From a phage, in the sequence record NC_101835.1: a stretch of DNA of 64,000 bases, one strand, 5' to 3'. Each line of letters opens with the position of its first letter. Position 1 is the stretch's first letter. Below, in pieces: positions 3,281 through 49,708 of this stretch. Made by a program: the position numbers and the translations under genes. Under the pieces are notes generated by a model. It was not told the DNA's origin and ran no database searches. It saw only the letters and a list, made by a program, of their open reading frames with translations.

Positions 3281-4213
3281 ATGAGGAGACTAACAACCGA
3301 AGAGTTTATAGAAAAAGCTCAGACTATACATGGTGACAAATATGATTACTTCAAAGTGGAGTATAAAAACAACAAGACACCTGTGTGTATAATTTGTCCT
3401 GAGCACGGTGAGTTCTGGCAAACCCCTGTGGCACATGCTTTCAAGAAGCATGGTTGTCCAAGGTGTGGTGGGTCAGCGAAAAAGAACACTGAAGAGTTCA
3501 TAAAAGAGGCTATGGTTGTTCATGGGGACAAGTACGATTACTCATTAGTCAAATATGCGAACATGAGAACGCCTGTAAAAATTGTTTGCCCTGAACACGG
3601 TGTGTTTGAACAATACCCTGAAAACCACTTATACCAAAGAAACGGCTGCCCAGAGTGCTATGACTTAAGACGTGGGCAAAGTCAAGCGTTAACCCATAAG
3701 GAGCATGCTGCAATTATCCACAAAGCCAACCCAGACATAGAAATATTAGAGAAAATTGCCAATGATAACACAAAAGTGCAATGTAGGTGCAAAATTTGTG
3801 GGTATAAGTGGTCTGCTAAACCTAATAACCTAAAAAGTGGTCGTGGCTGCTGTAAATGCGCACAAAATGGATTCTTATCTCATGAGTACGGTAAACTCTA
3901 CATTATGGTTGATGACTTAGAAGTGCCAACACTTATGAAAATCGGTGTATGCGTTAAAATGCACAGGAGGAAAAATGAGGTGCTTAACAGTGCTCGTAAA
4001 TCTGGCGCAGGTGTCCACACTCTTCACGTAGTAAAAACGTGGAGCGGATCAACTCAAAACATGGTAGACTTAGAAAAATCTGTGCATAAGGCCTTCAGCA
4101 AGTATAAAATAAACTTTCCTGTAAAATTTGACGGTAGCACTGAGTTTTTCTACTACAGGCCTGAAGTGTTTGACACGGTAGAAGAGGTATACAAGAAGAT
4201 TTGTGGTAAATGA
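3281..4213 (+). CDS. T5orf172 (GIY-YIG superfamily)-like endonuclease with three N-terminal zinc-ribbon repeats
   Basis: Three repeats HGDKYDY..V.Y.N..TPV.I.CP.HG.F.Q.P..H...GCP.C; C-terminal LYIMVDD..KIGV...GSTEFF resembles T5orf172. Confidence 0.5.
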   Translation: MRRLTTEEFIEKAQTIHGDKYDYFKVEYKNNKTPVCIICPEHGEFWQTPVAHAFKKHGCPRCGGSAKKNTEEFIKEAMVVHGDKYDYSLVKYANMRTPVKIVCPEHGVFEQYPENHLYQRNGCPECYDLRRGQSQALTHKEHAAIIHKANPDIEILEKIANDNTKVQCRCKICGYKWSAKPNNLKSGRGCCKCAQNGFLSHEYGKLYIMVDDLEVPTLMKIGVCVKMHRRKNEVLNSARKSGAGVHTLHVVKTWSGSTQNMVDLEKSVHKAFSKYKINFPVKFDGSTEFFYYRPEVFDTVEEVYKKICGK

Positions 4214-37998: not shown

Positions 37999-38577
37999 CT
38001 AAAAGTATTCATAGAGGTATCCATCGGGAGCTGGAATTTTTTCATGAATGTAGTAACCAACATATATTCCGGTTTCTCTGCTGCAAGAGTTGTGGGATAC
38101 CCATTCTTTAAGAACGTTGCCATTCATGTCCAACCTCCTTACATTTTTGCACCGTCTACCGCTGGTGCTTCTATGTAACAGAATATCCTCTGTCTGCTTG
38201 TCTTTATTTTCTCCCCAAGTCGTTAAACGGATATTATCAAAAGAGTATCCTTTGAAATCGTCTATCCTGTCACAAGAAGGCTTTTTCCTTTTGTCGTATC
38301 CGCTGGCTACCCATTGGTCATACAACTCTTTGTAACCGTTTAGGTATAGCCACTCTTTAAACTCTTTTTTGGTGTAAGTCGGAGGAGGGTGACCTCTTTG
38401 CTTGCTGTTGCACTTTTGAGTCTTGTACAACACACGTATTACACCTTTTTCTGAAGAGTCTTTAGCAAATTGGTCAGCCTCCCTGCTGGCCTTCTTACAG
38501 CACTCTTTGCACGTTGATTTGTTGCTGGTGTAGAAGTCGGAGGCCTCCTTGTCCTCCCCACAACGTTTGCATTTCAT
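37999..38577 (-). CDS. zinc-ribbon plus HNH-like protein with substituted catalytic His
   Basis: N-terminal CKRCG...CKEC; CDRIDDFKGYSFDNIRLTTWGEN follows the HNH_3 pattern with H replaced by R. Confidence 0.35.
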   Translation of the reverse strand: MKCKRCGEDKEASDFYTSNKSTCKECCKKASREADQFAKDSSEKGVIRVLYKTQKCNSKQRGHPPPTYTKKEFKEWLYLNGYKELYDQWVASGYDKRKKPSCDRIDDFKGYSFDNIRLTTWGENKDKQTEDILLHRSTSGRRCKNVRRLDMNGNVLKEWVSHNSCSRETGIYVGYYIHEKIPAPDGYLYEYF

Positions 38578-38585
38578 AACTGACC

Positions 38586-39812
38586 TCAGAAAGGGATCGA
38601 GTCATCAAAGGCGTACTGTGCTGGATTCTGATCCATCGGGTCATCTTCCTCATCATTTACAGGAGGAGCGTCTACAGTGTTTTGCTGTGGAGCTGCTTCC
38701 TGTTTGGCAGCCTGAGGTTCTTGATGGTCAGTTGACCCAGCACCGTTCTTGATCCAATCGTACAACGGCTCAGCCAGATTAGTCAAGACATCTTTTGCTT
38801 CTGCAGTAATTGCCACTGCAAAATCATCAACTTTCGTTTTCTTGTCAATACGGCGACAAGCGTTCAACACCGCATTACCGACACTGGCACCTACTTCATC
38901 TTCAGTTCGGTTGGTGGCTTGAGCATACTCTTTCTTAAGCTCAATAGTGACTACGTGTAGTGTTTTAGCCACTCCTAATGGGTCGTCTACCTTAAACCCG
39001 CGATCCAGGATGATCTGCAACGCATTGATGCTATGCCCCGTTTCCACACCGATAGGGTCGTAAGAGGATTTACGCTTGCCACCGGAGCCTTGAGTGCCGT
39101 TCTCTGCCTTAGGAGGATAGGCCTTGAAACCACTGATAATGTTTCCAGTGTCTTTGTCAACAATGGCTGCAACACGACCACCTACCACCAGGTCTTTAAG
39201 CTGCTCATCAGTGACAACCATAGCACCTTCGCCAATCTTGTGGTCATTAACAGTAACCACGTTGCCAACAATCTGAGTCACATCACCATAGATGCGTAAA
39301 ACGTCCTGATTGGCATTCTGCTGAGGTTTCTGCTTCTGGCCTTGTGATTGTGCACCTTGTTGCTGTTTTTGCTGCTGAGTCGCTGCTGGAGCCTCTCCTG
39401 CACCCAGCTTGACCATCTTAGCCAGTGAGCCTTTGTAATAGGTCTTACCGTTATGCTCGTTTGCCTTCAAAGGGATATTTACGATCCATCCTGGCGTTAC
39501 GGTTTCCCACTTGTCATCAATTTTAACAGAGACAGAGTCTTGATGACCCGGTTTAAGCAACTTATCGCCCATACTGATCCAAACTTCTTCACCACCTTGA
39601 AGCAGGTTATCAGAGGAATCCAGTTCAGAAATCAGTAAAGAGATGGTGTGGCTGGATTCAATTTTCTTACCTTGCCACACAGTGGTTTTAATACCTGTTG
39701 TAGGATCAGCACCTTTGATAGGCTTGATGCTGACACGTTTAATCATGCCGTGAGCCAGTAAAACAGTTTCACGCGGATTCATCGGGTTAGCGAATTGTTG
39801 AATAACGCTCAT
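38586..39812 (-). CDS. putative ssDNA-binding protein with host-SSB-like C-terminal tip
   Basis: Gln-rich linker, acidic tail ending AFDDSIPF (cf. bacterial SSB DDDIPF); sits at the head of the replication module. Confidence 0.4.
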   Translation of the reverse strand: MSVIQQFANPMNPRETVLLAHGMIKRVSIKPIKGADPTTGIKTTVWQGKKIESSHTISLLISELDSSDNLLQGGEEVWISMGDKLLKPGHQDSVSVKIDDKWETVTPGWIVNIPLKANEHNGKTYYKGSLAKMVKLGAGEAPAATQQQKQQQGAQSQGQKQKPQQNANQDVLRIYGDVTQIVGNVVTVNDHKIGEGAMVVTDEQLKDLVVGGRVAAIVDKDTGNIISGFKAYPPKAENGTQGSGGKRKSSYDPIGVETGHSINALQIILDRGFKVDDPLGVAKTLHVVTIELKKEYAQATNRTEDEVGASVGNAVLNACRRIDKKTKVDDFAVAITAEAKDVLTNLAEPLYDWIKNGAGSTDHQEPQAAKQEAAPQQNTVDAPPVNDEEDDPMDQNPAQYAFDDSIPF

Positions 39813-40177
39813 TATTTGTCTCCTTGTTCTTCGTTAGTGTTTGCCGTGTGTGCAAACCCTGCTTGAATTAATTTGTCCTGAACTTGAGCCAACAGGCCCA
39901 TTGCAAAACTTGTAGTCCCAGAGAGGGCCATTAGCATATCTCGTTGTTGAGCTACCCAACCTAAGGCATAGTCCAAACGACGATATTTTTCTTCTTCACG
40001 CAGAGCCTGAAATAATTGTTCAGCCTCCGGTTGTTGTGTGAGCTCCTGAAGTCTTCCCATGAAAGAAGAAAGCACTAGCAGAAGAGACACTTGATCTTTA
40101 CTTAACCCTAAGAAAAATTCTTGAGGTTGTTCTTGCTCGTTCATCGCAACCGACGCTTGATCGTTCATTTGTTCCAT
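39812..40177 (-). CDS. hypothetical protein
   Basis: Track ORF. Confidence 0.5.
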   Translation of the reverse strand: MEQMNDQASVAMNEQEQPQEFFLGLSKDQVSLLLVLSSFMGRLQELTQQPEAEQLFQALREEEKYRRLDYALGWVAQQRDMLMALSGTTSFAMGLLAQVQDKLIQAGFAHTANTNEEQGDK

Positions 40178-40260
40178 TATGGAATCTCCGATTTTATTTG
40201 AACAACATAGAAGGAGACACTATTTTAGCATCCCCTTCTGTAAATTACAATAGGTATTTG

Positions 40261-40506
40261 TTAGCCAATCACTTCGAAAGTTCCCCAATTCCCGTCCAGC
40301 AGGCAGGTGATCGGATCTCCATCGTCGTCAAAGATTTCAAAGTTTTCAGCATCCAGGATGTGGCCCTCGAACACAATACTCTCGTCGCCACCACCAGAAA
40401 TAACAGCGTATTCCTTACCTTGAGTCAAGTTTTGACACCCTTTGCCACCAAAACCTACTTCCACACAACGTACTTTCTGTCCTGCGCGAGCAACTACTTC
40501 AGCCAT
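40261..40506 (-). CDS. hypothetical protein
   Basis: Track ORF. Confidence 0.5.
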   Translation of the reverse strand: MAEVVARAGQKVRCVEVGFGGKGCQNLTQGKEYAVISGGGDESIVFEGHILDAENFEIFDDDGDPITCLLDGNWGTFEVIG

Positions 40507-40523
40507 CTTAAGGTCTCCTGATA

Positions 40524-40844
40524 TTAATCGTCAAGTTCAAAATAGATTTTAACAGCTTCATCAAAGATTGGAATCCCGACGTTGTTGATAAGCTGCCAAA
40601 CTACCATATCTTTACCTGGATCTGGGAGAATGTCAACCTTTCTCCATGCGCTGTATATCCAGTTCGGACCACCTTCTGCACTAACTGGCAGATTTTCACC
40701 AGCTTCCTGTAGATACTTATACAGCAAAAGATATTCTGGATACTCTAGAACACTGTCCTCTGTAGTATATAGCAGTTCACGGTATACTTTTAAGAACCCT
40801 GCTGGGGTAATGTTTTCAGTCTTCATTTGCCGCTTCTCCTGCAT
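40524..40844 (-). CDS. hypothetical protein
   Basis: Track ORF. Confidence 0.5.
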   Translation of the reverse strand: MQEKRQMKTENITPAGFLKVYRELLYTTEDSVLEYPEYLLLYKYLQEAGENLPVSAEGGPNWIYSAWRKVDILPDPGKDMVVWQLINNVGIPIFDEAVKIYFELDD

Positions 40845-41205
40845 TCATCAGGTCTGCCATAGCGTCACCCACGAAGAGAACAACCACATCGTTGACAGCG
40901 TCAGCATCATCTTTGTTGACGTTGCTGAATTTAGGACACACAGCAATGATCATATAGACACCGTTACCAACCTGGACTGTCCGTGTGGTGCACATCATGG
41001 CGGTATTTGTGCCTTCTTTGAAGGCGAAGCCTTGAAGACGCTCCTCTAAAGTGTTACCGGTAGACTTCAGAAGCGCCAGCTCGTCCAAGGCATAGATGAT
41101 ATCTCCGGAAGTTAGTGTTGCCTTGCCATCAGACACCATAATCACTCCATCAGTACCGTCAAGCTTAGAGGCTTCAAAGATATCAATATCCCAAATATTT
41201 TTCAT
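40816..41205 (-). CDS. hypothetical acidic protein
   Basis: Track ORF. Confidence 0.5.
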   Translation of the reverse strand: MKNIWDIDIFEASKLDGTDGVIMVSDGKATLTSGDIIYALDELALLKSTGNTLEERLQGFAFKEGTNTAMMCTTRTVQVGNGVYMIIAVCPKFSNVNKDDADAVNDVVVLFVGDAMADLMNAGEAANED

Positions 41206-41537
41206 TACGCTTCCTCGTCGTCTAAGTAATCATCAAGAGAGGCGAAGATTTCACCGAAGTATTCTAAGATTTCTAGCTCACGTGTGGTGCAGCAAACATA
41301 ATCGCCTTGGTCGTCCTTAATAGTGGCCTCTTTACCCAGAATATCTACTTCAAGTTCATCGTTCAACAGGACGGCCCCTGTGTAAACTTTGTCAGCTGTG
41401 CAGTCCCGAAAAGCAGAGTCCTTCTCCAGATAGTCTGGCTTAACCTTGGCTTTAATTCGTTGGTATTGTTTGGTCATTGCTGTGGTCCCCTTTCGTTTTG
41501 ATAGGGCCATTATATTAGGCCCTATCACTGTTGTCAA
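41205..41537 (-). CDS. hypothetical protein (tandem paralog of 41541-41795)
   Basis: Shared KP(D/E)..A(F)(K/R)DCT...KDD(Q/E)GD..(C)T motifs. Confidence 0.5.
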   Translation of the reverse strand: MTTVIGPNIMALSKRKGTTAMTKQYQRIKAKVKPDYLEKDSAFRDCTADKVYTGAVLLNDELEVDILGKEATIKDDQGDYVCCTTRELEILEYFGEIFASLDDYLDDEEA

Positions 41538-41540
41538 GTA

Positions 41541-41795
41541 TTAATGTTCAGGTTTTACAAAAACGACTTCATTAACAGTGCACCAGACAGAGTCTCCTTC
41601 ATCATCTTTAAAGGTAAGGCACTGTGCTGAGTTTTCCAGCTCATCGATCTCTTCTTGTGATAAAGGGGCCCCTTCTTCCAGAAGGGCTTTTACCAGAGGG
41701 TTCTCACAAAACTCTGCTTCATAAATTGCACCGACTGTGCAATCTTTAAAAGCTCGGTCATTTGCAACGCATTCTGGCTTCAAAGTAATTTTCAT
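41541..41795 (-). CDS. hypothetical protein (tandem paralog)
   Basis: See 41205-41537. Confidence 0.5.
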   Translation of the reverse strand: MKITLKPECVANDRAFKDCTVGAIYEAEFCENPLVKALLEEGAPLSQEEIDELENSAQCLTFKDDEGDSVWCTVNEVVFVKPEH

Positions 41796-41871
41796 CTTGG
41801 CAGTCTCCTCAGTTATTTAAAAATCAACGCTCTGTTTGTGTGAAGCATCTTATATCTAATCTTACTTCTTG

Positions 41872-42270
41872 TCAATGGCTATTTTCAATCAGCCACACAG
41901 GGTCGAGGTAAATTTGTTGGCGTGTTGCCCAATGACAAACTTCATTGTACATCTGAATCTCTTTGTCTGTCAATTCACGAATAGGCTCATCTATACCCTC
42001 ATTTTTGTGGTAATCCCAGTCGGCATCGATTTCCCACAGCCATGACTTGTTGTCACCACGCTTACGCACACAGAAGTCACCAGGACGGCCTGCCAATGCA
42101 TTTAAGAACTCGTTCTCCGCTCGCTCTTGGAGAATACTAAGGAGCAAAACGTTAGAACATGACCGTAGAATATGCTTCAGCTCACAATCATCAATCTCAA
42201 CTTCAATACGTTGTTTGACTGTGTGGGTACCTTTTACTAACATCCTACCTCCTCTAAACGAACTCTGCAA
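41872..42270 (-). CDS. hypothetical protein
   Basis: Track ORF. Confidence 0.5.
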   Translation of the reverse strand: MQSSFRGGRMLVKGTHTVKQRIEVEIDDCELKHILRSCSNVLLLSILQERAENEFLNALAGRPGDFCVRKRGDNKSWLWEIDADWDYHKNEGIDEPIRELTDKEIQMYNEVCHWATRQQIYLDPVWLIENSH

Positions 42271-42448
42271 GGGTTGTGTTGTTCACTGCACCGCAGTAAA
42301 TGGAGTATCCCAGCCCATTAGAGTGCAGAAACCACGGCGTGCCGAAATTATCTTTCACGTAGACATCGCCGTTGCTTGTAAAGGGCCAATATTCTTCACC
42401 AAGGGTGAAATACCTACTCATACCCTCAGCCAGATACTTTACTTTCAT
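42254..42448 (-). CDS. small protein, G..W(F/Y)L family
   Basis: KDNFGTPWFLHSNGLGYSIYCGAV; related to the next two ORFs. Confidence 0.5.
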   Translation of the reverse strand: MKVKYLAEGMSRYFTLGEEYWPFTSNGDVYVKDNFGTPWFLHSNGLGYSIYCGAVNNTTLAEFV

Positions 42449-42672
42449 AGGCCCTCTTCAACAGCTACAAACTTGGCAAGCAGGGTGGTTCCGTAGATAT
42501 GATACTCACCGTTTGCCAGATGGGAGATAAACCAGGAAATCCCTTCCTCGTCTTTAATCATCTTGTTTGCACGATTTTTATCGTAATAAACCTCGTAGGT
42601 CTTTCCTTCTTTAAAGAATGACAGGTCTGTCATCTTTTCTTCTACAAAAGTAGCTTTAACCAAAGTTGTCAT
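42445..42672 (-). CDS. small protein, G..W(F/Y)L family
   Basis: KDEEGISWFISHLANGEYHIYG. Confidence 0.5.
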   Translation of the reverse strand: MTTLVKATFVEEKMTDLSFFKEGKTYEVYYDKNRANKMIKDEEGISWFISHLANGEYHIYGTTLLAKFVAVEEGL

Positions 42673-42986
42673 TGATCGGTCTCCTTCTTGTTAAGTCTGA
42701 ATACTGCAATAATAGCATTCCCAAGGTGCAGTGTCAAATCATTTCCAAGATACCACAACATTCCACGGTCATCTTTAATGAAAGGGTAACAATCTGGTGC
42801 CTTCCAGACATTGTACACTTTCCCAACCTGAAAGAAATCAGGCCCTGTTGGGATTTTGGTGCCAGGCCACACTTGGGATGCCTGAACACACTCCACCTGC
42901 ATAATAACAGGGATAGTCATAGATGTAAATGTTTTTGTTGGTTCTACTACCATAAAAGTCTCCTCTTTGCTCAACAACACTTCCAT
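42669..42986 (-). CDS. small protein, G..W(F/Y)L family
   Basis: KDDRGMLWYLGNDLTLHLGNAII; internal start MEVLLSKEE chosen to clear the polymerase exon. Confidence 0.45.
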   Translation of the reverse strand: MEVLLSKEETFMVVEPTKTFTSMTIPVIMQVECVQASQVWPGTKIPTGPDFFQVGKVYNVWKAPDCYPFIKDDRGMLWYLGNDLTLHLGNAIIAVFRLNKKETDQ

Positions 42987-43002
42987 GTGTTGATAGTTTA
43001 CA

Positions 43003-43356
43003 TTAGTGACAATCACCCCAATTACGACCACACAAGTATTCACCTGTGATCTGGAACGGGACTCCCATCATTTTAGAAGCTTGCCAGAAGCAATGTACCA
43101 CCATTTCGCCCACAGGACTCCAGATAAGTTCAAGCTTTCCGTCATCGTTCAAGATAGGATCGTACACCGTGTTTCCGTTTCTGTCAACCACTTCGTTTCC
43201 GTTTTCATCCTTGCGTGCCTTTTTGTACTTATGACCGTCGAACACATGAAGTTTGGCCTCCTGCTCTGCCTTAAATGCTTCCAATTCTTCAATTGTGTCG
43301 AAGGTGTACACAGTCTTATACTTAGGTGTGTCAGGGACCTGAAGTTGGTACTCATC
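43003..43356 (-). CDS. DNA polymerase A, exon 2 (motif C to C-terminus)
   Basis: Begins DEYQLQV (motif C acidic pair after splicing to ...YYH), ends GRNWGDCH as in T7/Pol I C-termini. Confidence 0.7.
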   Translation of the reverse strand, partial: DEYQLQVPDTPKYKTVYTFDTIEELEAFKAEQEAKLHVFDGHKYKKARKDENGNEVVDRNGNTVYDPILNDDGKLELIWSPVGEMVVHCFWQASKMMGVPFQITGEYLCGRNWGDCH

Positions 43357-43632
43357 CAATAGTTCAGGTAGGTCGTTAAGCTACCCCGCACCATTACGTG
43401 CATAGCCATACGTTTTCACGTAGGATCGGACCATCTCATATTCCTATGATAAGCAACCACAGGAATCCTCCCATTTCGACCGCACTTGCTGGTCTACTTC
43501 CTTTCGGAATGGCCTCTGAGCGTTCGCTCTTTTGAGCGCTTCGTTGCGGATTACCTTGCCATAAGGTTTAGGCTTCCCGCAGTTAAAGAGGTTATTCGAC
43601 ATAGATTACTCTATGAAGCCACAATGTTATTT
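43357..43632 (-). mobile_element. group I intron in DNA polymerase gene, no ORF
   Basis: Exon 1 ends on U after ...IIYYH, intron ends on G before DE; splicing rebuilds the YYH|DE motif; 276 nt. Confidence 0.6.
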
Positions 43633-46056
43633 ATGGTAATAAATAATACGACGAACACCTTCATCGTACCACCCACGCTTCACCATTTGGTGGTGCATAA
43701 GTATCCCAACCAAGTCACACAGCGATGCACCACCATTCTGTTGATATGCATTAAGTAAAGAGTGTTTAGATCGGGTCCAGATGGCATGACCATCAAAAGA
43801 GTAGATAAACTTCTTACCCGTTGCTTCCCAGAATTTCTCCAGATCCTCTTTACGGCCCTTAAGACCAGGGTTGGCATCCCAAAGCGCATCGATTACCCTT
43901 TGTCCCAACTCTGGAGAGATGTCCAGCATATCTGCAACTTTATCTTTTTGTGCCCCGTACATAACCCCATACGTGATAGGTTTACCGTCGTTACGGGACA
44001 CCTCTCTACCTGCTACTTTTGTATATGCCTCAGCATTGTTTTGGTGTGCGTCCCCGTTACTTACAACATCGTAATACAGGCCGTTGTCGAACTCAAAGGC
44101 ACCCCAAGCCCCGATAAGCTGCTCTAAGTTGGACCCGTCAATACCGATCTCAAAGTATCCCGGAGGAACACCCCACAGACTACGCATCTCTTTACCCATA
44201 ACCACTTTAGGAGATGGTTTAGGCATGTTTGCACAAATACTGTGTTTCTGTCTGGAAGTGTTTGTTAATCCAGAGCTTTTAGCAGGAAGCTTATGGTCAA
44301 TCTTCAAACGTGGGTGATTAAGAAGACCAGTGTCAACCTTATCCTCCTTGATTGGATCAAGTACCGATCTGCGGTTTCGCAATGATAACCATAAGACGAT
44401 ATCTTTAGCCATCTCTCCGTTCAATTTTTCAAGATTCGGACACAGGTGTCCAAACGTATCTTTCAGTTGCGGAGAAGTAATAAGTGCCCTAGCTTTTCTA
44501 CGTATTTTCCCGAATACTTCCTTTTTAATCCTTTCGGAGTTAGGAAAGCTTCGGAACTTGTGCACTGTTGTCTGAAACTTAGCATCAGTTTTGTTCCAGA
44601 AGTTGATAATTAGGTCACAATACTCTGACTCTAAAAGCTCGTCCATGTATGCATATACTCGTGCATCAACATCTGCATCAGGTAGAGCTTTCTTCTTGCT
44701 GTCTTTAGTTACATCCTTAGTTCTCCACATTGTCGGAAGCCAACCAGCACTGATCAGGTATCGCTTAATGTCGTCCTGATTGCTGATTTTCATAGGTATC
44801 TTGCAGTCAGGCATTCGCTTCTGCTGCAGATCGCTTATTGCCTGATCCATCAGCTCTTTAGGCAAAGGTTGTGGTGTGGAGGTGCCCTTAATATAACCTC
44901 TCAAGAAATCAGCCATCTTGTCGGGGTCTTTGCAGCCCATCTCTTCACACCATTTTATCCCCATCTTACTGACATCTCCTGTGGAGGTAAATGCTCTCTT
45001 AGGCGGGGCTTTGAACTCTAGAGCGCTCATGTCTACAGGATAGCCAAGCTTATCTTTTAACCATTTCCAACCATTATTAGAGATTGTCCCGTCTTGGTTA
45101 AACGGCTTTTCAGGGAACTTGGGCCGCTGAGACATTGACAGCTCTTTTAAAGGCAGTTGTGGTTCAACACGATCAGCGATTTCTTTCATCCACGCATCGC
45201 AACGGTCACGTAAAGCAATAGCTCCATCTATGTCGAAGTATACACCCTGACGGGCCTGCAGCTCCATCAGGAAGTGCTGCAGCATGCCTCGACGTAATGC
45301 GTTCTTCCAGGTGATCTTCTTGAACCCTTTCGGCTTCTCTTTGGCAGGATCGTACATAAAGTTCTGCATGTCAGATTTGCCGTAGAATACACCTTTTGAT
45401 TCCGCTACCAGTTCTTTCCAGAGCAGCTCCTGGATGATAACGTCCTCAAATACACGATCCACATACTTCCACAACGGAAGATCGCGCCAGTCATCAATTT
45501 GAACTTTCTGGTTACCAAGGGCATAGCCCCATGCCATAAGGCCGTGGGGACCAACAGGCTGCATTTTCTTAGTAACCGGGTTGAATACAGCGTCCGGACA
45601 ACCTTTTGGTAAAGGGCGATCAGGCCACAAGATTCGGCTCATCGCCAACGTATCAAACAGGTTAACCTGGTGGTCGTTGATAGTCCCCATGCATTTAGGA
45701 TCACGGAACATATCAAAATGAATACCGGATAATCTTTCCATCAGCATAAAGTCATAACTGTAGCAGTTATGGCAGTTCAAAGCTGTTGGTGACCAGTCGG
45801 AATTGCCTGTAAGCCAACCTTCCAACTCCGAAAAATCTGCTATGCGAACTTCAAAACCTTTATAAAGAGTTTTCTTTGCCAGAATGAAGTTCTTAGCCTT
45901 TTCTATATCCTCCTCGGAGTAGTGTGTGCGGTCATTTAGAGGAAGGAACAGCATAAAACGGTTCTTATTCAGCTCTTTAAACAGGCCGCAGTGATAATAA
46001 AGATCTGGATCTTCCAAAAGCCCTGAGGCCTCCAGATCGAAGCACCAATTACTCAT
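43633..46056 (-). CDS. DNA polymerase A, exon 1 (3'-5' exonuclease and polymerase motifs A/B)
   Basis: Exo I FDLEASGL; motif B RNDGKPITYGVMYGAQ; upstream of motif C colinear with T7 gp5. Confidence 0.8.
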
Positions 46057-46787
46057 ACTGTCTCCTCCTGTGTCTTCTCAGCATTCTTTCTTGCAGCTAT
46101 TGCATCGTCCCTGTTCTTGAAATACCCAAGGCATTTCCTTTTACCATCTACATAAATTCTGGCTACCCATCTTTCATGGGTTTTATCCCAATTCACCCCT
46201 GAGCAACCGCTGGTGTTATTATACTGCACGGCTCTTCCACTCTTGTGCGAAAAACCATTATCTTCGAAGAACTTTCTTGCCCACTCTGCCTCTTCAAAAG
46301 TTCTGTACTGGCCTAGCCAGACCCTTTCACCTACAGAGTCTGTGCCTTGAGCTACCCATGCCCCTCTTTCTTCAGAATAGTGCACCCCGACCCTGCCAGA
46401 TTTGTTGTTGCTACGAGGTATCTTGCAACTTTTCTTTTTGTTATCTGTAGGTTCGAGTAGTTGCAAATTTTGAATACTGTTGTCAGCCACACCACCTGTT
46501 TCCCTTATCTCCTTGATGTGGTCAACCTCATACCCTTCCGGTACAGGACCGTTAAACATTTCCCAGATTATAACGTGGGCACCTTTAGTGCAATGCTTTC
46601 CTAGACTAACCACAGGCCTGCCATCAGCATCTTGCCCCTTGTCAGCTCTGGAGCCTGCTGAAGTTTTAACATATCCTACACCGCTGCCTGCCAGAATGTC
46701 TATCTTCCAAAAAAGATTTTGACCGTCATACTCCAATATTTCTGACCACAAGTGATTAGCTACACAGTGATCTCTGAACTCGTTCAT
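46053..46787 (-). CDS. HNH-AP2 homing endonuclease (free-standing)
   Basis: HNH motif HVIIWEMF...EVDHIKEIRETGGVADNSIQNLQLL; two AP2-like repeats (GVHYSEERGAWVAQ, GVNWDKTHERWVARI). Confidence 0.75.
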   Translation of the reverse strand: MNEFRDHCVANHLWSEILEYDGQNLFWKIDILAGSGVGYVKTSAGSRADKGQDADGRPVVSLGKHCTKGAHVIIWEMFNGPVPEGYEVDHIKEIRETGGVADNSIQNLQLLEPTDNKKKSCKIPRSNNKSGRVGVHYSEERGAWVAQGTDSVGERVWLGQYRTFEEAEWARKFFEDNGFSHKSGRAVQYNNTSGCSGVNWDKTHERWVARIYVDGKRKCLGYFKNRDDAIAARKNAEKTQEETV

Positions 46788-46845
46788 AAAGTGTTCTCCT
46801 TAAAGGGGAGGCGGTTGTACTACCCCTCCCACTCTTTGTTAAACA

Positions 46846-48924
46846 TTAAAAAGGCGTTTCATCATCCTCAAAACCAGGGACCGGGTCAGAGGATGGATCA
46901 TCGTACTGGAGGTCTTCCTGCGTGTCAACAGGCTTAACAGTAGGAGTTACAACCTTATCAGCCACAACCTTGCCCATAGGTGTTTCTACAACTGCATGCT
47001 CCTGATCCTCAAACATAGCCTGAGGTCTCCAAACAACCTCCCCACCTTCTCCGTCTGTAAACATTTGCATTTCTTTGTCCCAGTACCAATTACTGGCATC
47101 ATGGAACTTACCTGTATGTGGGTCCATAACTAAAGTGTCAGCAATACCTAAAGTTTTTGCTGGACGGTTTTTAAGACCTACCAGACGGACACGCCCACGA
47201 GAACGATCCACCATTTCTTCGGCCTCGACACCTATGACTACCCAACTCAACTGTTCAAGCCCAGCCGATCCTCGCAAATTCTCTTTTCGCACAGGATACC
47301 AGAAAGGTAATGGGTTACCATCCTTGTCCTTAGGGGGCACAATCTCTGTACGTTTGAGGTGAGCGATCACCAAGATAAACACGTTAAACTGCTTACAAAA
47401 CGCAGCCAGCTGAGTCATAGCCATGTCCAGTTCTTTTCGCTCATCTTTAACATTAAGCCCTGAAATTACCATAGACAGGTGATCCAGCACAATATAGCGA
47501 CAATGGTACAGGCAGACCATTTGCTTAAGCTTGGTAATCAACTCGTCCACTGGAATAGACCCGAAATGTTTGAACACTTTGATTTTTCCAGCTTTTGCCC
47601 ATGATTGGTGAATCTCTGCATGTTCTTGATCAGTTAAAAACTGGCTAGGATCTTCAACAAACTCTTTAACATCAAACCCTAACTGGTTTGCATACAAGGA
47701 GTTAATTGCTTCCTCTGGGTCCTCCTCAAGATGAATCATGCATAGACGATCATCCTCTTCGTAGTCATCGGCCTTTGGACATGTCGGGTCCATTAGGTAT
47801 CTTGCAATACAGTGTTCCAGTTTTTTGGCTACAGTTGTTTTACCACCTCCTGATGGACCTGTAAGCATTACGAGTGTCCCTTTGTGCAAGCCTTTTAGCA
47901 TTTTTTGCAGTTTTGGAAACTCTGCGCTGATATCTACCCCGTTGGAAGTCTTTTTCCGCAAAGATTCGATAGAGAAGTCTTCTAAATCCGACACAGCATC
48001 AGGCACATACTTAACAGGATGCCGGAACATGTTTACAATATCTTCCAGCTTTTTAGCCTTCAGCATGTCACGGATATCTTTTACACCATCAGGGTCGTTT
48101 ACCTCGCCAGGATATTCCACGTGGTAAACGTTGTCAGCCATCAAAAATGCTGCAATATTATGTGTGGCTTCAACACCTTTGATAACGTGTTTTTGCTTCT
48201 CTACCTCGTTAGCCGCATCGTTGTCCATTGCAAGGACCACTGTTCCGTAGCTACGGATAAATTTCTCATTGTTTGCAAAAGTATCTACTGCGTTTGCACA
48301 TCCACAGTTAATTCCAACAAAAGGTAGGCAGGGTTTTCCTGCCAGATCACCCCCGTTGATAACTGCATCGATCCCGTCCTGGACCTCTTTAGCCCACTGT
48401 TTCACCTTTGCCGGGGCTTTAGCGTTGGTGAGAATCCCTTTTACTTGTATCTGATATGCAGCCTGCCATGCTGCAATAACATCACCTTCCCCCTCACAAA
48501 CGTTAATCTGCTTACGGTTGTTAGAAGATGCACACAGCTTTTGCCCAAACATTTGGGAGTTAGCCTTTACGATCCCAACCGTCGTAAAGTGCCCACGTTG
48601 CTCTTTGGGGATCGTCCAGTCACGCTTTTTGAAACCGGACAGATTCCCGTAGCGGTCGTAATATGGGAAATATGTTGCAGTAACTGTCACACCGTCTTCT
48701 TGGGACAATGCTGATCGCACACCAAAATATTGTGCAGCCATCAGACCGATATTTTGTTGTGGGACAGGGACGATTTTAGTATTTTCTAAAACAGTCTCTA
48801 CAGTTTCAACTTCTTTTTCATCACGATAGTCTCGTTTCACACTTCCCCCACTTTTATACTTAGTTGCTTTCGGGTTTGGCTCACCGAAACGGTTGTATGC
48901 AGATGCCATAAATTTACTTCCCAT
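46846..48924 (-). CDS. primase-helicase (TOPRIM primase fused to DnaB-like helicase)
   Basis: TOPRIM VCEGEGD; Walker A GPSGGGKT; acidic C-terminal tail ...FEDDETPF. Confidence 0.8.
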   Translation of the reverse strand: MGSKFMASAYNRFGEPNPKATKYKSGGSVKRDYRDEKEVETVETVLENTKIVPVPQQNIGLMAAQYFGVRSALSQEDGVTVTATYFPYYDRYGNLSGFKKRDWTIPKEQRGHFTTVGIVKANSQMFGQKLCASSNNRKQINVCEGEGDVIAAWQAAYQIQVKGILTNAKAPAKVKQWAKEVQDGIDAVINGGDLAGKPCLPFVGINCGCANAVDTFANNEKFIRSYGTVVLAMDNDAANEVEKQKHVIKGVEATHNIAAFLMADNVYHVEYPGEVNDPDGVKDIRDMLKAKKLEDIVNMFRHPVKYVPDAVSDLEDFSIESLRKKTSNGVDISAEFPKLQKMLKGLHKGTLVMLTGPSGGGKTTVAKKLEHCIARYLMDPTCPKADDYEEDDRLCMIHLEEDPEEAINSLYANQLGFDVKEFVEDPSQFLTDQEHAEIHQSWAKAGKIKVFKHFGSIPVDELITKLKQMVCLYHCRYIVLDHLSMVISGLNVKDERKELDMAMTQLAAFCKQFNVFILVIAHLKRTEIVPPKDKDGNPLPFWYPVRKENLRGSAGLEQLSWVVIGVEAEEMVDRSRGRVRLVGLKNRPAKTLGIADTLVMDPHTGKFHDASNWYWDKEMQMFTDGEGGEVVWRPQAMFEDQEHAVVETPMGKVVADKVVTPTVKPVDTQEDLQYDDPSSDPVPGFEDDETPF

Positions 48925-49708
48925 TAATTCTGCTCCTTACTACAGGCTCGTTTGCTAAGAATACGGCTTTTGCCCAGCCACGTGGTGTGAGGCTTCGGAT
49001 CATCTTCGTTCTTGCACTCTTTCCACCCAGCTTGGCGTGTTGCATGGAATACCCGCTAACCGCGTCAACTATTTGCGGGACAGGTTTTGTGGCCGGGATT
49101 ATAAATCCATTACCTATCCAGCCGCAAGTTATTTTTGGATAGGCATCACGTGGAGCTATAAATTCAGGAAACCAAGGGTTTACATCATCCTCCGGTAAAT
49201 ACCCTCCATAGTCAGAAGGATGAAAACGGTAATCAGGTTTGCGCCACAGTGTGGACATAACACCAACAGGATTCTCTACATGCCACGGGCAATCGTAAAT
49301 CTCTCCCAGCTCTTCCGCAACCCGAGCATCCTTTACAGCATTAATTTGGATCATGGGGTCCTTAGCCAGCTTTTTCTTAAAATGTGCAGCACCTGATACC
49401 GCTAAATGCGTGCACGGAGGAAATGCAAGAATAAAGTCTGGGGCTGGGTACATGCAAAAAGTTTCCTGAGGGAACCATGGGTCAATCCAATAATCCACAT
49501 AGTGGATGTTGGGATGATCGGTTATCACCTCTGCATAACTGCCGTGATCAGCACCTTCTGCATTGAAGCATAGGCACAGGTACCCAGCTTTTGCCCAGTC
49601 AATGACTGCACCACCAGACCCGTCAAATAGACTCCACACAACACCTTTGTGGTAGTGTTCTTTGTAGATAAATTTCAATTTGCTGTCTCCTAATGCAAAA
49701 AGCCCCAC
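48914..49708 (-). CDS. DNA cytosine-C5 methyltransferase-like protein
   Basis: Motif I LFDGSGG, motif IV-like AFPPCTHLAVSG, motif VI HVENPVG. Confidence 0.55.
   Translation of the reverse strand: MGLFALGDSKLKFIYKEHYHKGVVWSLFDGSGGAVIDWAKAGYLCLCFNAEGADHGSYAEVITDHPNIHYVDYWIDPWFPQETFCMYPAPDFILAFPPCTHLAVSGAAHFKKKLAKDPMIQINAVKDARVAEELGEIYDCPWHVENPVGVMSTLWRKPDYRFHPSDYGGYLPEDDVNPWFPEFIAPRDAYPKITCGWIGNGFIIPATKPVPQIVDAVSGYSMQHAKLGGKSARTKMIRSLTPRGWAKAVFLANEPVVRSRINGK

Follow-up and report, generated by a model that had tools for sequence, protein, structure and literature searches.

Acidic Pro-Phe tails on an SSB-like protein and a primase-helicase in a putative T7-type replisome of an rV5-like phage

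The stretch of DNA analysed here (64,000 nucleotides of sequence record NC_101835.1, hereafter the window) comes from an rV5/FFH2-like Escherichia coli myophage (Vequintavirus), and its replication genes all lie on the minus strand. Two of them, encoding a 408-amino-acid (aa) protein that resembles proteins that bind single-stranded DNA (SSBs) and a 692-aa T7 gp4-like primase-helicase, end in acidic tails closed by Pro-Phe. The 408-aa protein is probably the phage's own replicative SSB, a member of a non-canonical family, in a T7-type replisome where both tails serve as docking peptides; its binding to single-stranded DNA (ssDNA), its oligomerisation and every contact between a tail and a partner are what we infer. 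Acidic tails that end in Phe are an established principle, known from T7 and from bacterial SSB, and the SSB-like protein itself is already described, by prediction, in a preprint discussed below. The conserved PF tail of the primase-helicase is a new instance of the known T7 gp4 pattern. The least expected items are a previously undescribed add-on peptide that follows Pro-Phe in related loci and the polymorphism of this peptide.

The SSB-like open reading frame (ORF) ends ...NDEEDDPMDQNPAQYAFDDSIPF (...YAFDDSIPF) and the primase-helicase ORF ends ...GFEDDETPF, exactly as and where the original prediction had read them, both on the minus strand. The window has 217 ORFs that start with ATG and are 50 aa or longer; a PF end, or an acidic run followed by F, is found in these two alone. 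The tip FDDSIPF matches the E. coli SSB tip FDDDIPF at six of seven positions, and the FFH2 orthologue carries FDDDIPF, an exact match. The likeness to the end of host SSB that had been proposed is thus borne out, and both tails are conserved within their families. An exhaustive profile search for the SSB-like family gave 246 representatives after clustering at 50% identity, 147 of which were examined. PF is the end of 111 of these and DDDIPF the commonest terminal hexapeptide (28 representatives); most others are fragments or end in IPFN, IPFS, LDF or IPW. Across 26 aligned homologues reaching down to 29% identity, neither P407 nor F408 varies and the consensus tip is DFDDDIPF, and in an alignment of 136 members the tail (D403, D404, D405, P407 and F408) and a helical domain described below are the best-conserved parts. 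The S405 of the window is a minority variant, position 405 being D in 76% of family members. Homologues of the primase-helicase end in an acidic residue, any residue and PF in 113 of 120 cases, down to 42% identity and with Vibrio phages included. Chance or low complexity as the origin of the tails was rejected on this conservation in both families.

The last 12 residues of some short forms of the SSB-like protein, EPPMDFDDDIPF, are those of E. coli SSB; over 46 nt, the DNA encoding this tail has 87% identity to E. coli ssb. This is suggestive of module exchange, but it is not decisive for horizontal transfer, since identical peptides already force a high identity.

FFH2 and O157 typing phage 14 have orthologues of the SSB-like ORF with 99.8% protein identity, and a copy at 95% identity or above occurs in 115 phage records. 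The profile match of the SSB-like protein is phrog_4477 (residues 1-408, E 2.1e-172), which PHROG labels 'unknown function', and in two homologue tables all GenBank records but one are 'hypothetical', the exception being a Stephanstirmvirinae short form annotated as SSB. The original prediction had left the fold of the body open, which does not hold at the level of predicted structure. Structure prediction with AlphaFold2 and the family alignment, with the helical domain also modelled separately, gives three confidently folded parts joined by disordered linkers and followed by a disordered acidic tail. The N-terminal part is a predicted OB fold structurally closest to SSB, PriB and RPA. The second is a small barrel with a short helix between strands 3 and 4, absent from the short members of the family (about 260-310 aa), and the third is a four-helix domain. 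Pfam gave no match to the whole protein or to these three domains in isolation even at E <= 10, and no sequence similarity of the OB domain to bacterial SSB was detected with the Pfam SSB family (PF00436), with tblastn or in a profile search of PDB sequences, where the SSB tail alone was matched (E about 0.3). A Foldseek search of BFVD returned uncharacterised family members and weak matches to SSB-like and phage ssDNA-binding proteins. No SSB is annotated in the complete genome of FFH2; a tblastn search with the E. coli protein matches the tail of the SSB-like protein alone.

Modelled by itself, the four-helix domain mostly has a predicted local distance difference test score (pLDDT) above 90, and a structural-neighbour search with it gave no convincing match. 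Its conserved residues are D252, G255, G259, H260, N263, G308, G312, A314 and A318. The spacings of the small residues (G255-x3-G259 and G308-x3-G312-x-A314-x3-A318) are typical of tight helix packing; they and the escape mutations in this domain, described below, hint at homo-oligomerisation, and the modelled domain probably mediates self-association. Two IMG/VR contigs, L016 and L020, encode proteins of 171-194 aa that seem to consist of a short N-terminal part and a four-helix-like region (e.g. LGNTVGNAVINC); they have an acidic tail and an add-on after the helical region, and no N-terminal OB barrel. If this architecture, read from sequence, is real, helical domain and tail can exist alone.

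The 408-aa protein could instead be another scaffold of DNA metabolism, such as a recombination mediator, an annealing factor or a helicase loader, in which an OB fold and an SSB-type tail are combined outside a replicative SSB. The best-conserved part of the body being the four-helix domain and not the OB fold would suit such a protein, as would the lack of a structural neighbour for this domain and the apparent architecture of the L016 and L020 proteins. However, the OB fold is closest to SSB-class proteins, the overall layout (DNA-binding fold, disordered linker, acidic tip) is that of an SSB, Phold independently predicts an SSB-like fold, and no alternative SSB was found in the FFH2 annotation or by tblastn. 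A scaffold of this kind is therefore quite improbable.

The partners of the putative replicative SSB are of T7 type. The primase-helicase matches Pfam DnaB_C (E 1.8e-13) and AAA_25, is spanned by phrog_239 'DNA primase/helicase' over residues 18-678, and has T7 gp4 (best PDB match, E 1.6e-16) and, weakly, Twinkle as its only solved relatives. It aligns weakly to the EGE.D and D.D motifs of gp4; Pfam TOPRIM has no match in the window protein, and Toprim_2 is recorded for one homologue. The family A polymerase, whose gene is split by an intron, is 925 aa long after inferred splicing (ending GRNWGDCH), with T7 gp5 as its sole PDB match (E 5.9e-16). The gp5 polymerase of T7 has basic patches to which gp2.5 and gp4 bind with their acidic tails; the two tails compete for the same sites, and the terminal Phe of gp2.5 is essential. 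Since the polymerase and helicase have no solved relatives but gp5 and gp4, apart from the weak match to Twinkle, T7-style tail docking is the best reading, and the comparison with T7 made in the original prediction fits. The window resembles the T7 replisome in having homologues of gp5 and gp4, and in a putative SSB and a helicase that both carry acidic C-terminal tails ending in Phe. It differs in that the body of the SSB-like protein does not appear gp2.5-like by sequence and has bacterial-type SSBs as its best structural neighbours, in that its tip is the bacterial IPF motif, and in the large insertions and group I intron of the 925-aa polymerase.

The mechanism proposed is that of a clamp-less T7-type replisome, composed of the SSB-like protein, the gp4-like primase-helicase and the gp5-like polymerase. 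In the SSB-like protein, an OB fold like those of SSB and RPA would be followed by a second, small barrel, then by a four-helix domain, and finally by a long acidic tail, disordered and closed by a bacterial SSB tip. Both tails would act as flexible docking peptides that bring the polymerase, by analogy their candidate partner, together with further partners, to the fork as well as to DNA coated with SSB. As the SSB-like tip is almost identical to that of the host, it might also compete for or recruit host SSB-binding proteins, for example exonuclease I.

The acidic tip of bacterial SSB mediates partner binding. The window protein resembles E. coli SSB (PF00436) in its predicted OB fold, in the disordered linker and in an acidic tip of the ...DFDDDIPF type; unlike E. 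coli SSB, it has an extra barrel and a four-helix domain, and its linker is rich in Gln and acidic residues instead of Gly, Pro and Gln. A precedent for the use of such a tip by a phage is the SSB of HK620, the last six residues of which (NDYPPF) are needed to recruit the phage recombination protein Sak4 to SSB-coated ssDNA. PF-ended tails of phage SSBs can thus serve phage partners. The HK620 protein differs in being a distant homologue of bacterial SSB that belongs to the recombination module of a temperate phage and not to a T7-type replisome.

An orthologue of the SSB-like protein, Bas52_0087 of Escherichia phage RudolfGeigy (QXV84166.1; MZ501102.1), is 99.0% identical to it over 408 aa and was studied in a preprint of 30 April 2026 (bioRxiv 10.64898/2026.04.29.721553). 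According to that preprint, Bas52_0087 is required for triggering of the DRT10 reverse-transcriptase defence, and the mutations D252V and Y351C in it allow escape. Phold and AlphaFold2 gave it an 'SSB-like architecture' with two OB folds, the small second barrel being counted as one of them, and a disordered C-terminus; the authors pointed out its FDDDIPF tip and suggested a competition with exonuclease I (SbcB). Dosage of SbcB, an exonuclease that binds the SSB tip, modulates DRT10 triggering, and Bas52_0087 expressed alone is neither toxic nor sufficient to trigger DRT10 (10.64898/2026.04.29.721553). D252 and Y351 are both present in the window protein, where they fall inside the four-helix domain. 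The window allele differs from Bas52_0087 in having FDDSIPF in place of FDDDIPF and in being followed by a homing-endonuclease gene, and the preprint does not set the helical domain apart as its own fold and is silent on the tail of the primase-helicase, the T7-like setting and the alleles with the add-on. A retron paper on Bas51 was set aside as a source for the SSB-like protein, the trigger there being a methyltransferase. The suggestion that the tail may recruit host SSB-interacting proteins has gained a link to exonuclease I, which the Bas52_0087 genetics suggest independently, but direct binding by the tail is something we infer. Overall, the interpretation in the original prediction is partly supported; by analogy, its ideas of tail docking and host mimicry are reasonable, and they are consistent with these independent genetics.

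The 3' end of the SSB-like gene exists in three alleles among phages of about 98% identity, which diverge exactly past the Pro-Phe codons (window 38577-38591 compared with loci L056 and L006). In the first (FFH2, Bas52) no endonuclease gene follows. In the second, that of the window and found in 17 records, the stop codon is followed after 8 nt by an endonuclease gene. In the third, 45 extra nt encode the 15 residues APVGLQYGKSRIHAL after PF and overlap the start of a variant endonuclease gene. This add-on is not found in the window; it is present in DrSchubert and MaxBurger and absent from RudolfGeigy and WalterGehring. A degenerate-DNA scan of IMG/VR for PFAPIGLQY returned 43 contigs, in which the add-on consists of APIGLQY and 7-8 mostly hydrophobic residues (e.g. 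PALLMCM, GRSRIYAL, AKHAIYVI) directly after ...DDDIPF or ...DDTPF (e.g. L006 2893-2937, L008 12016-12063, L056 about 3728-3772, and L013-L055). Its carriers are canonical bacterial-type phage SSBs, other OB-type SSBs, phrog_4477 proteins and primase-helicases. Within Vequintavirus the add-on travels with one endonuclease variant. However, as a mere leader of the downstream homing-endonuclease gene it was rejected, because the genes downstream differ across the 43 contigs and third codon positions vary while the peptide is preserved. A megablast of E. coli genomes with one add-on-bearing SSB gave no match; a peptide-based homologue search gave only short SSB-annotated fragments (Proteus, Providencia, Salmonella, E. 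coli, Klebsiella), and the string APIGLQY was not found in the literature searched.

The same add-on after PF in SSB-like proteins, canonical SSBs and primase-helicases indicates that both tails are one kind of portable module. This bears on whether their resemblance is functionally coincidental, the SSB-like tail having come from bacterial-type SSB genes and the helicase tail being an inherited gp4-type acidic end with another partner or none. A systematic difference at position -3 (I, V or L in the SSB-like family; T, S, E or C in helicases) and the lineage-specific occurrence of the helicase tail would fit such a coincidence. Coincidence is nevertheless very unlikely, given the shared add-on, the retention of Pro-Phe after acidic residues in both families and the competition of the two T7 tails for the same polymerase sites.

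Several observations weigh against a replicative SSB whose tail docks, with that of the helicase, on the polymerase. The front basic patch of T7 gp5, KWKRR, aligns only to 'KK' in the window polymerase and is not conserved there. The window helicase differs from gp4 in lacking the zinc finger: an N-terminal Cys4 motif was not found, there being no Cys before residue 131 and no CxxC pair. T7 primase uses its Cys4 zinc-binding domain for template recognition. Stephanstirmvirinae-like relatives have a helicase with the end ...PEGSY alongside an SSB-like protein that still closes with DFDDDIPF; thus, the two tails need not share one partner. The add-on junction occurs in 32 deposited close relatives, where PF is internal, and PF is also internal in the largest protein cluster (P0001, 533 members); binding modes that require a free carboxylate on the terminal Phe should be lost when this residue is internal. 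Finally, the harmlessness of Bas52_0087 expressed alone argues against strong titration of essential host SSB partners.

Some of these points would suit a protein that is mainly a host-directed SSB mimic, its tail competing with host SSB for exonuclease I and other tip-binding enzymes and so protecting phage ssDNA ends or diverting host repair, with docking of the phage polymerase secondary or absent. The lack of conservation of the basic patch in the polymerase and the SSB tip preserved where the helicase has no PF tail are of this kind, as are the tip identical or nearly identical to that of E. coli SSB, the 12 residues shared by the short forms with their 46 nt of similar DNA, and the genetic link of SbcB dosage to DRT10 triggering. 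However, expression alone is harmless to E. coli, the add-on alleles bury the tip, and the gene lies inside the replication module. With no other SSB candidate in the FFH2 annotation or by tblastn, a replicative role is still needed. A mainly host-directed role is therefore rather unlikely, and a replicative SSB that may in addition touch host partners is preferred.

A broader and more speculative proposal, which we regard as doubtful, is that the add-on acts on the tail as a portable switch, masking, redirecting or destabilising it, and that acidic PF tails form a shared, exchangeable docking code for clamp-less T7-type phage replisomes. A distinct SSB family (OB fold with a helical oligomerisation domain) and the primase-helicase would then use their tails to compete for shared sites, both on the polymerase and on the host's SSB partners, for example exonuclease I. 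If this were true, the add-on polymorphism among near-identical phages could change their sensitivity to defence systems that sense phage SSBs.

Phages of the rV5 type (Vequintavirinae) and their relatives have been isolated widely and are studied for biocontrol of E. coli and for therapy, and in their genomes the SSB-like gene is nearly always 'hypothetical'. As a likely replicative SSB it would complete a T7-type replisome for phages of 135-150 kb. The preferred reading gives a concrete and testable model of what holds this replisome together and of its contact with the host's ssDNA metabolism, and it would explain why DRT10, which is keyed to ssDNA processing, is triggered by the SSB-like protein. 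The practical gain is better annotation, with defined peptides and mutants.

Table 1. Positions in the window of the replication genes, their neighbours and the parts of the SSB-like protein, primase-helicase and polymerase
Feature	Position	Strand	Basis or remark
Free-standing homing-endonuclease-like gene, phrog_1035 'endonuclease VII'-like	37999..38577	-	start 8 nt past stop of SSB-like gene
SSB-like gene, 408 aa, phrog_4477	38586..39812	-	orthologue of Bas52_0087 / FFH2 ORF193
Disordered acidic C-terminal tail, aa 357-408	38589..38744	-	pLDDT < 50; composition
Tail tip FDDSIPF, aa 402-408	38589..38609	-	
Four-helix domain, aa 251-356	38745..39062	-	
Second small five-stranded barrel, aa 170-235 (OB/SH3-like)	39108..39305	-	
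Gln-rich disordered linker, aa 140-169	39306..39395	-	pLDDT < 50; length varies among homologues
N-terminal beta-barrel, aa 1-139, predicted OB fold of SSB/PriB/RPA type	39396..39812	-	
121-aa gene, phrog_7310 (unknown function)	39812..40177	-	
Run of small ORFs	between polymerase gene and 121-aa ORF	-	
Family A DNA polymerase gene, intron-split	43003..46056	-	
Polymerase exon 2 (DEYQLQV...GRNWGDCH, stop)	43003..43356	-	
Group I intron, 276 nt, splits polymerase at motif C (YYH/DE)	43357..43632	-	Rfam and inferred splice sites
Polymerase exon 1, 808 codons through ...IIYYH	43633..46056	-	
HNH-AP2 homing endonuclease gene (HNH_3 and AP2), between primase-helicase and polymerase genes	46053..46787	-	
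Primase-helicase gene, 692 aa, T7 gp4-like, insert-free allele	46846..48924	-	Pfam, PHROG, PDB profile
Tail tip GFEDDETPF, aa 684-692	46849..46875	-	
Dcm-like methyltransferase gene	48914..49708	-	

The order primase-helicase, PolA, small genes and SSB-like gene is conserved in distant contigs, where the SSB-like protein is the short form without the middle barrel. The stop of the 121-aa gene and the start of the SSB-like gene have one base in common (Table 1), and the two genes may be translationally coupled. A gene of 131-132 aa (phrog_16560) takes the position of the 121-aa gene in distant relatives; homology of the 121-aa gene with such small upstream genes was looked for and could not be shown.

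The polymerase intron matches Rfam RF00028 (64.7 bits, E 8.8e-15, at 43407..43642), and its splice sites were placed by the U at the 5' splice site, by a G that closes the intron at its 3' end and by the HDE motif that splicing restores. It has no endonuclease ORF in the window; relatives such as WalterGehring and FFH2 have a homing endonuclease gene there. The primase-helicases of many relatives (clusters P0062-P0064 and P0103-P0151) are about 975-1025 aa long. That of P0063 has an insert of ~313 aa after ...VRKENLRG, which starts CVSADTEF, ends ...FITGN before S and looks like an intein by its sequence; no Pfam intein match was obtained for it. The window gene is the insert-free allele (NLRG/SAGLEQL). 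The two homing-endonuclease genes lie directly downstream of the SSB-like and primase-helicase genes, and each adjoins a conserved tail-coding 3' end.

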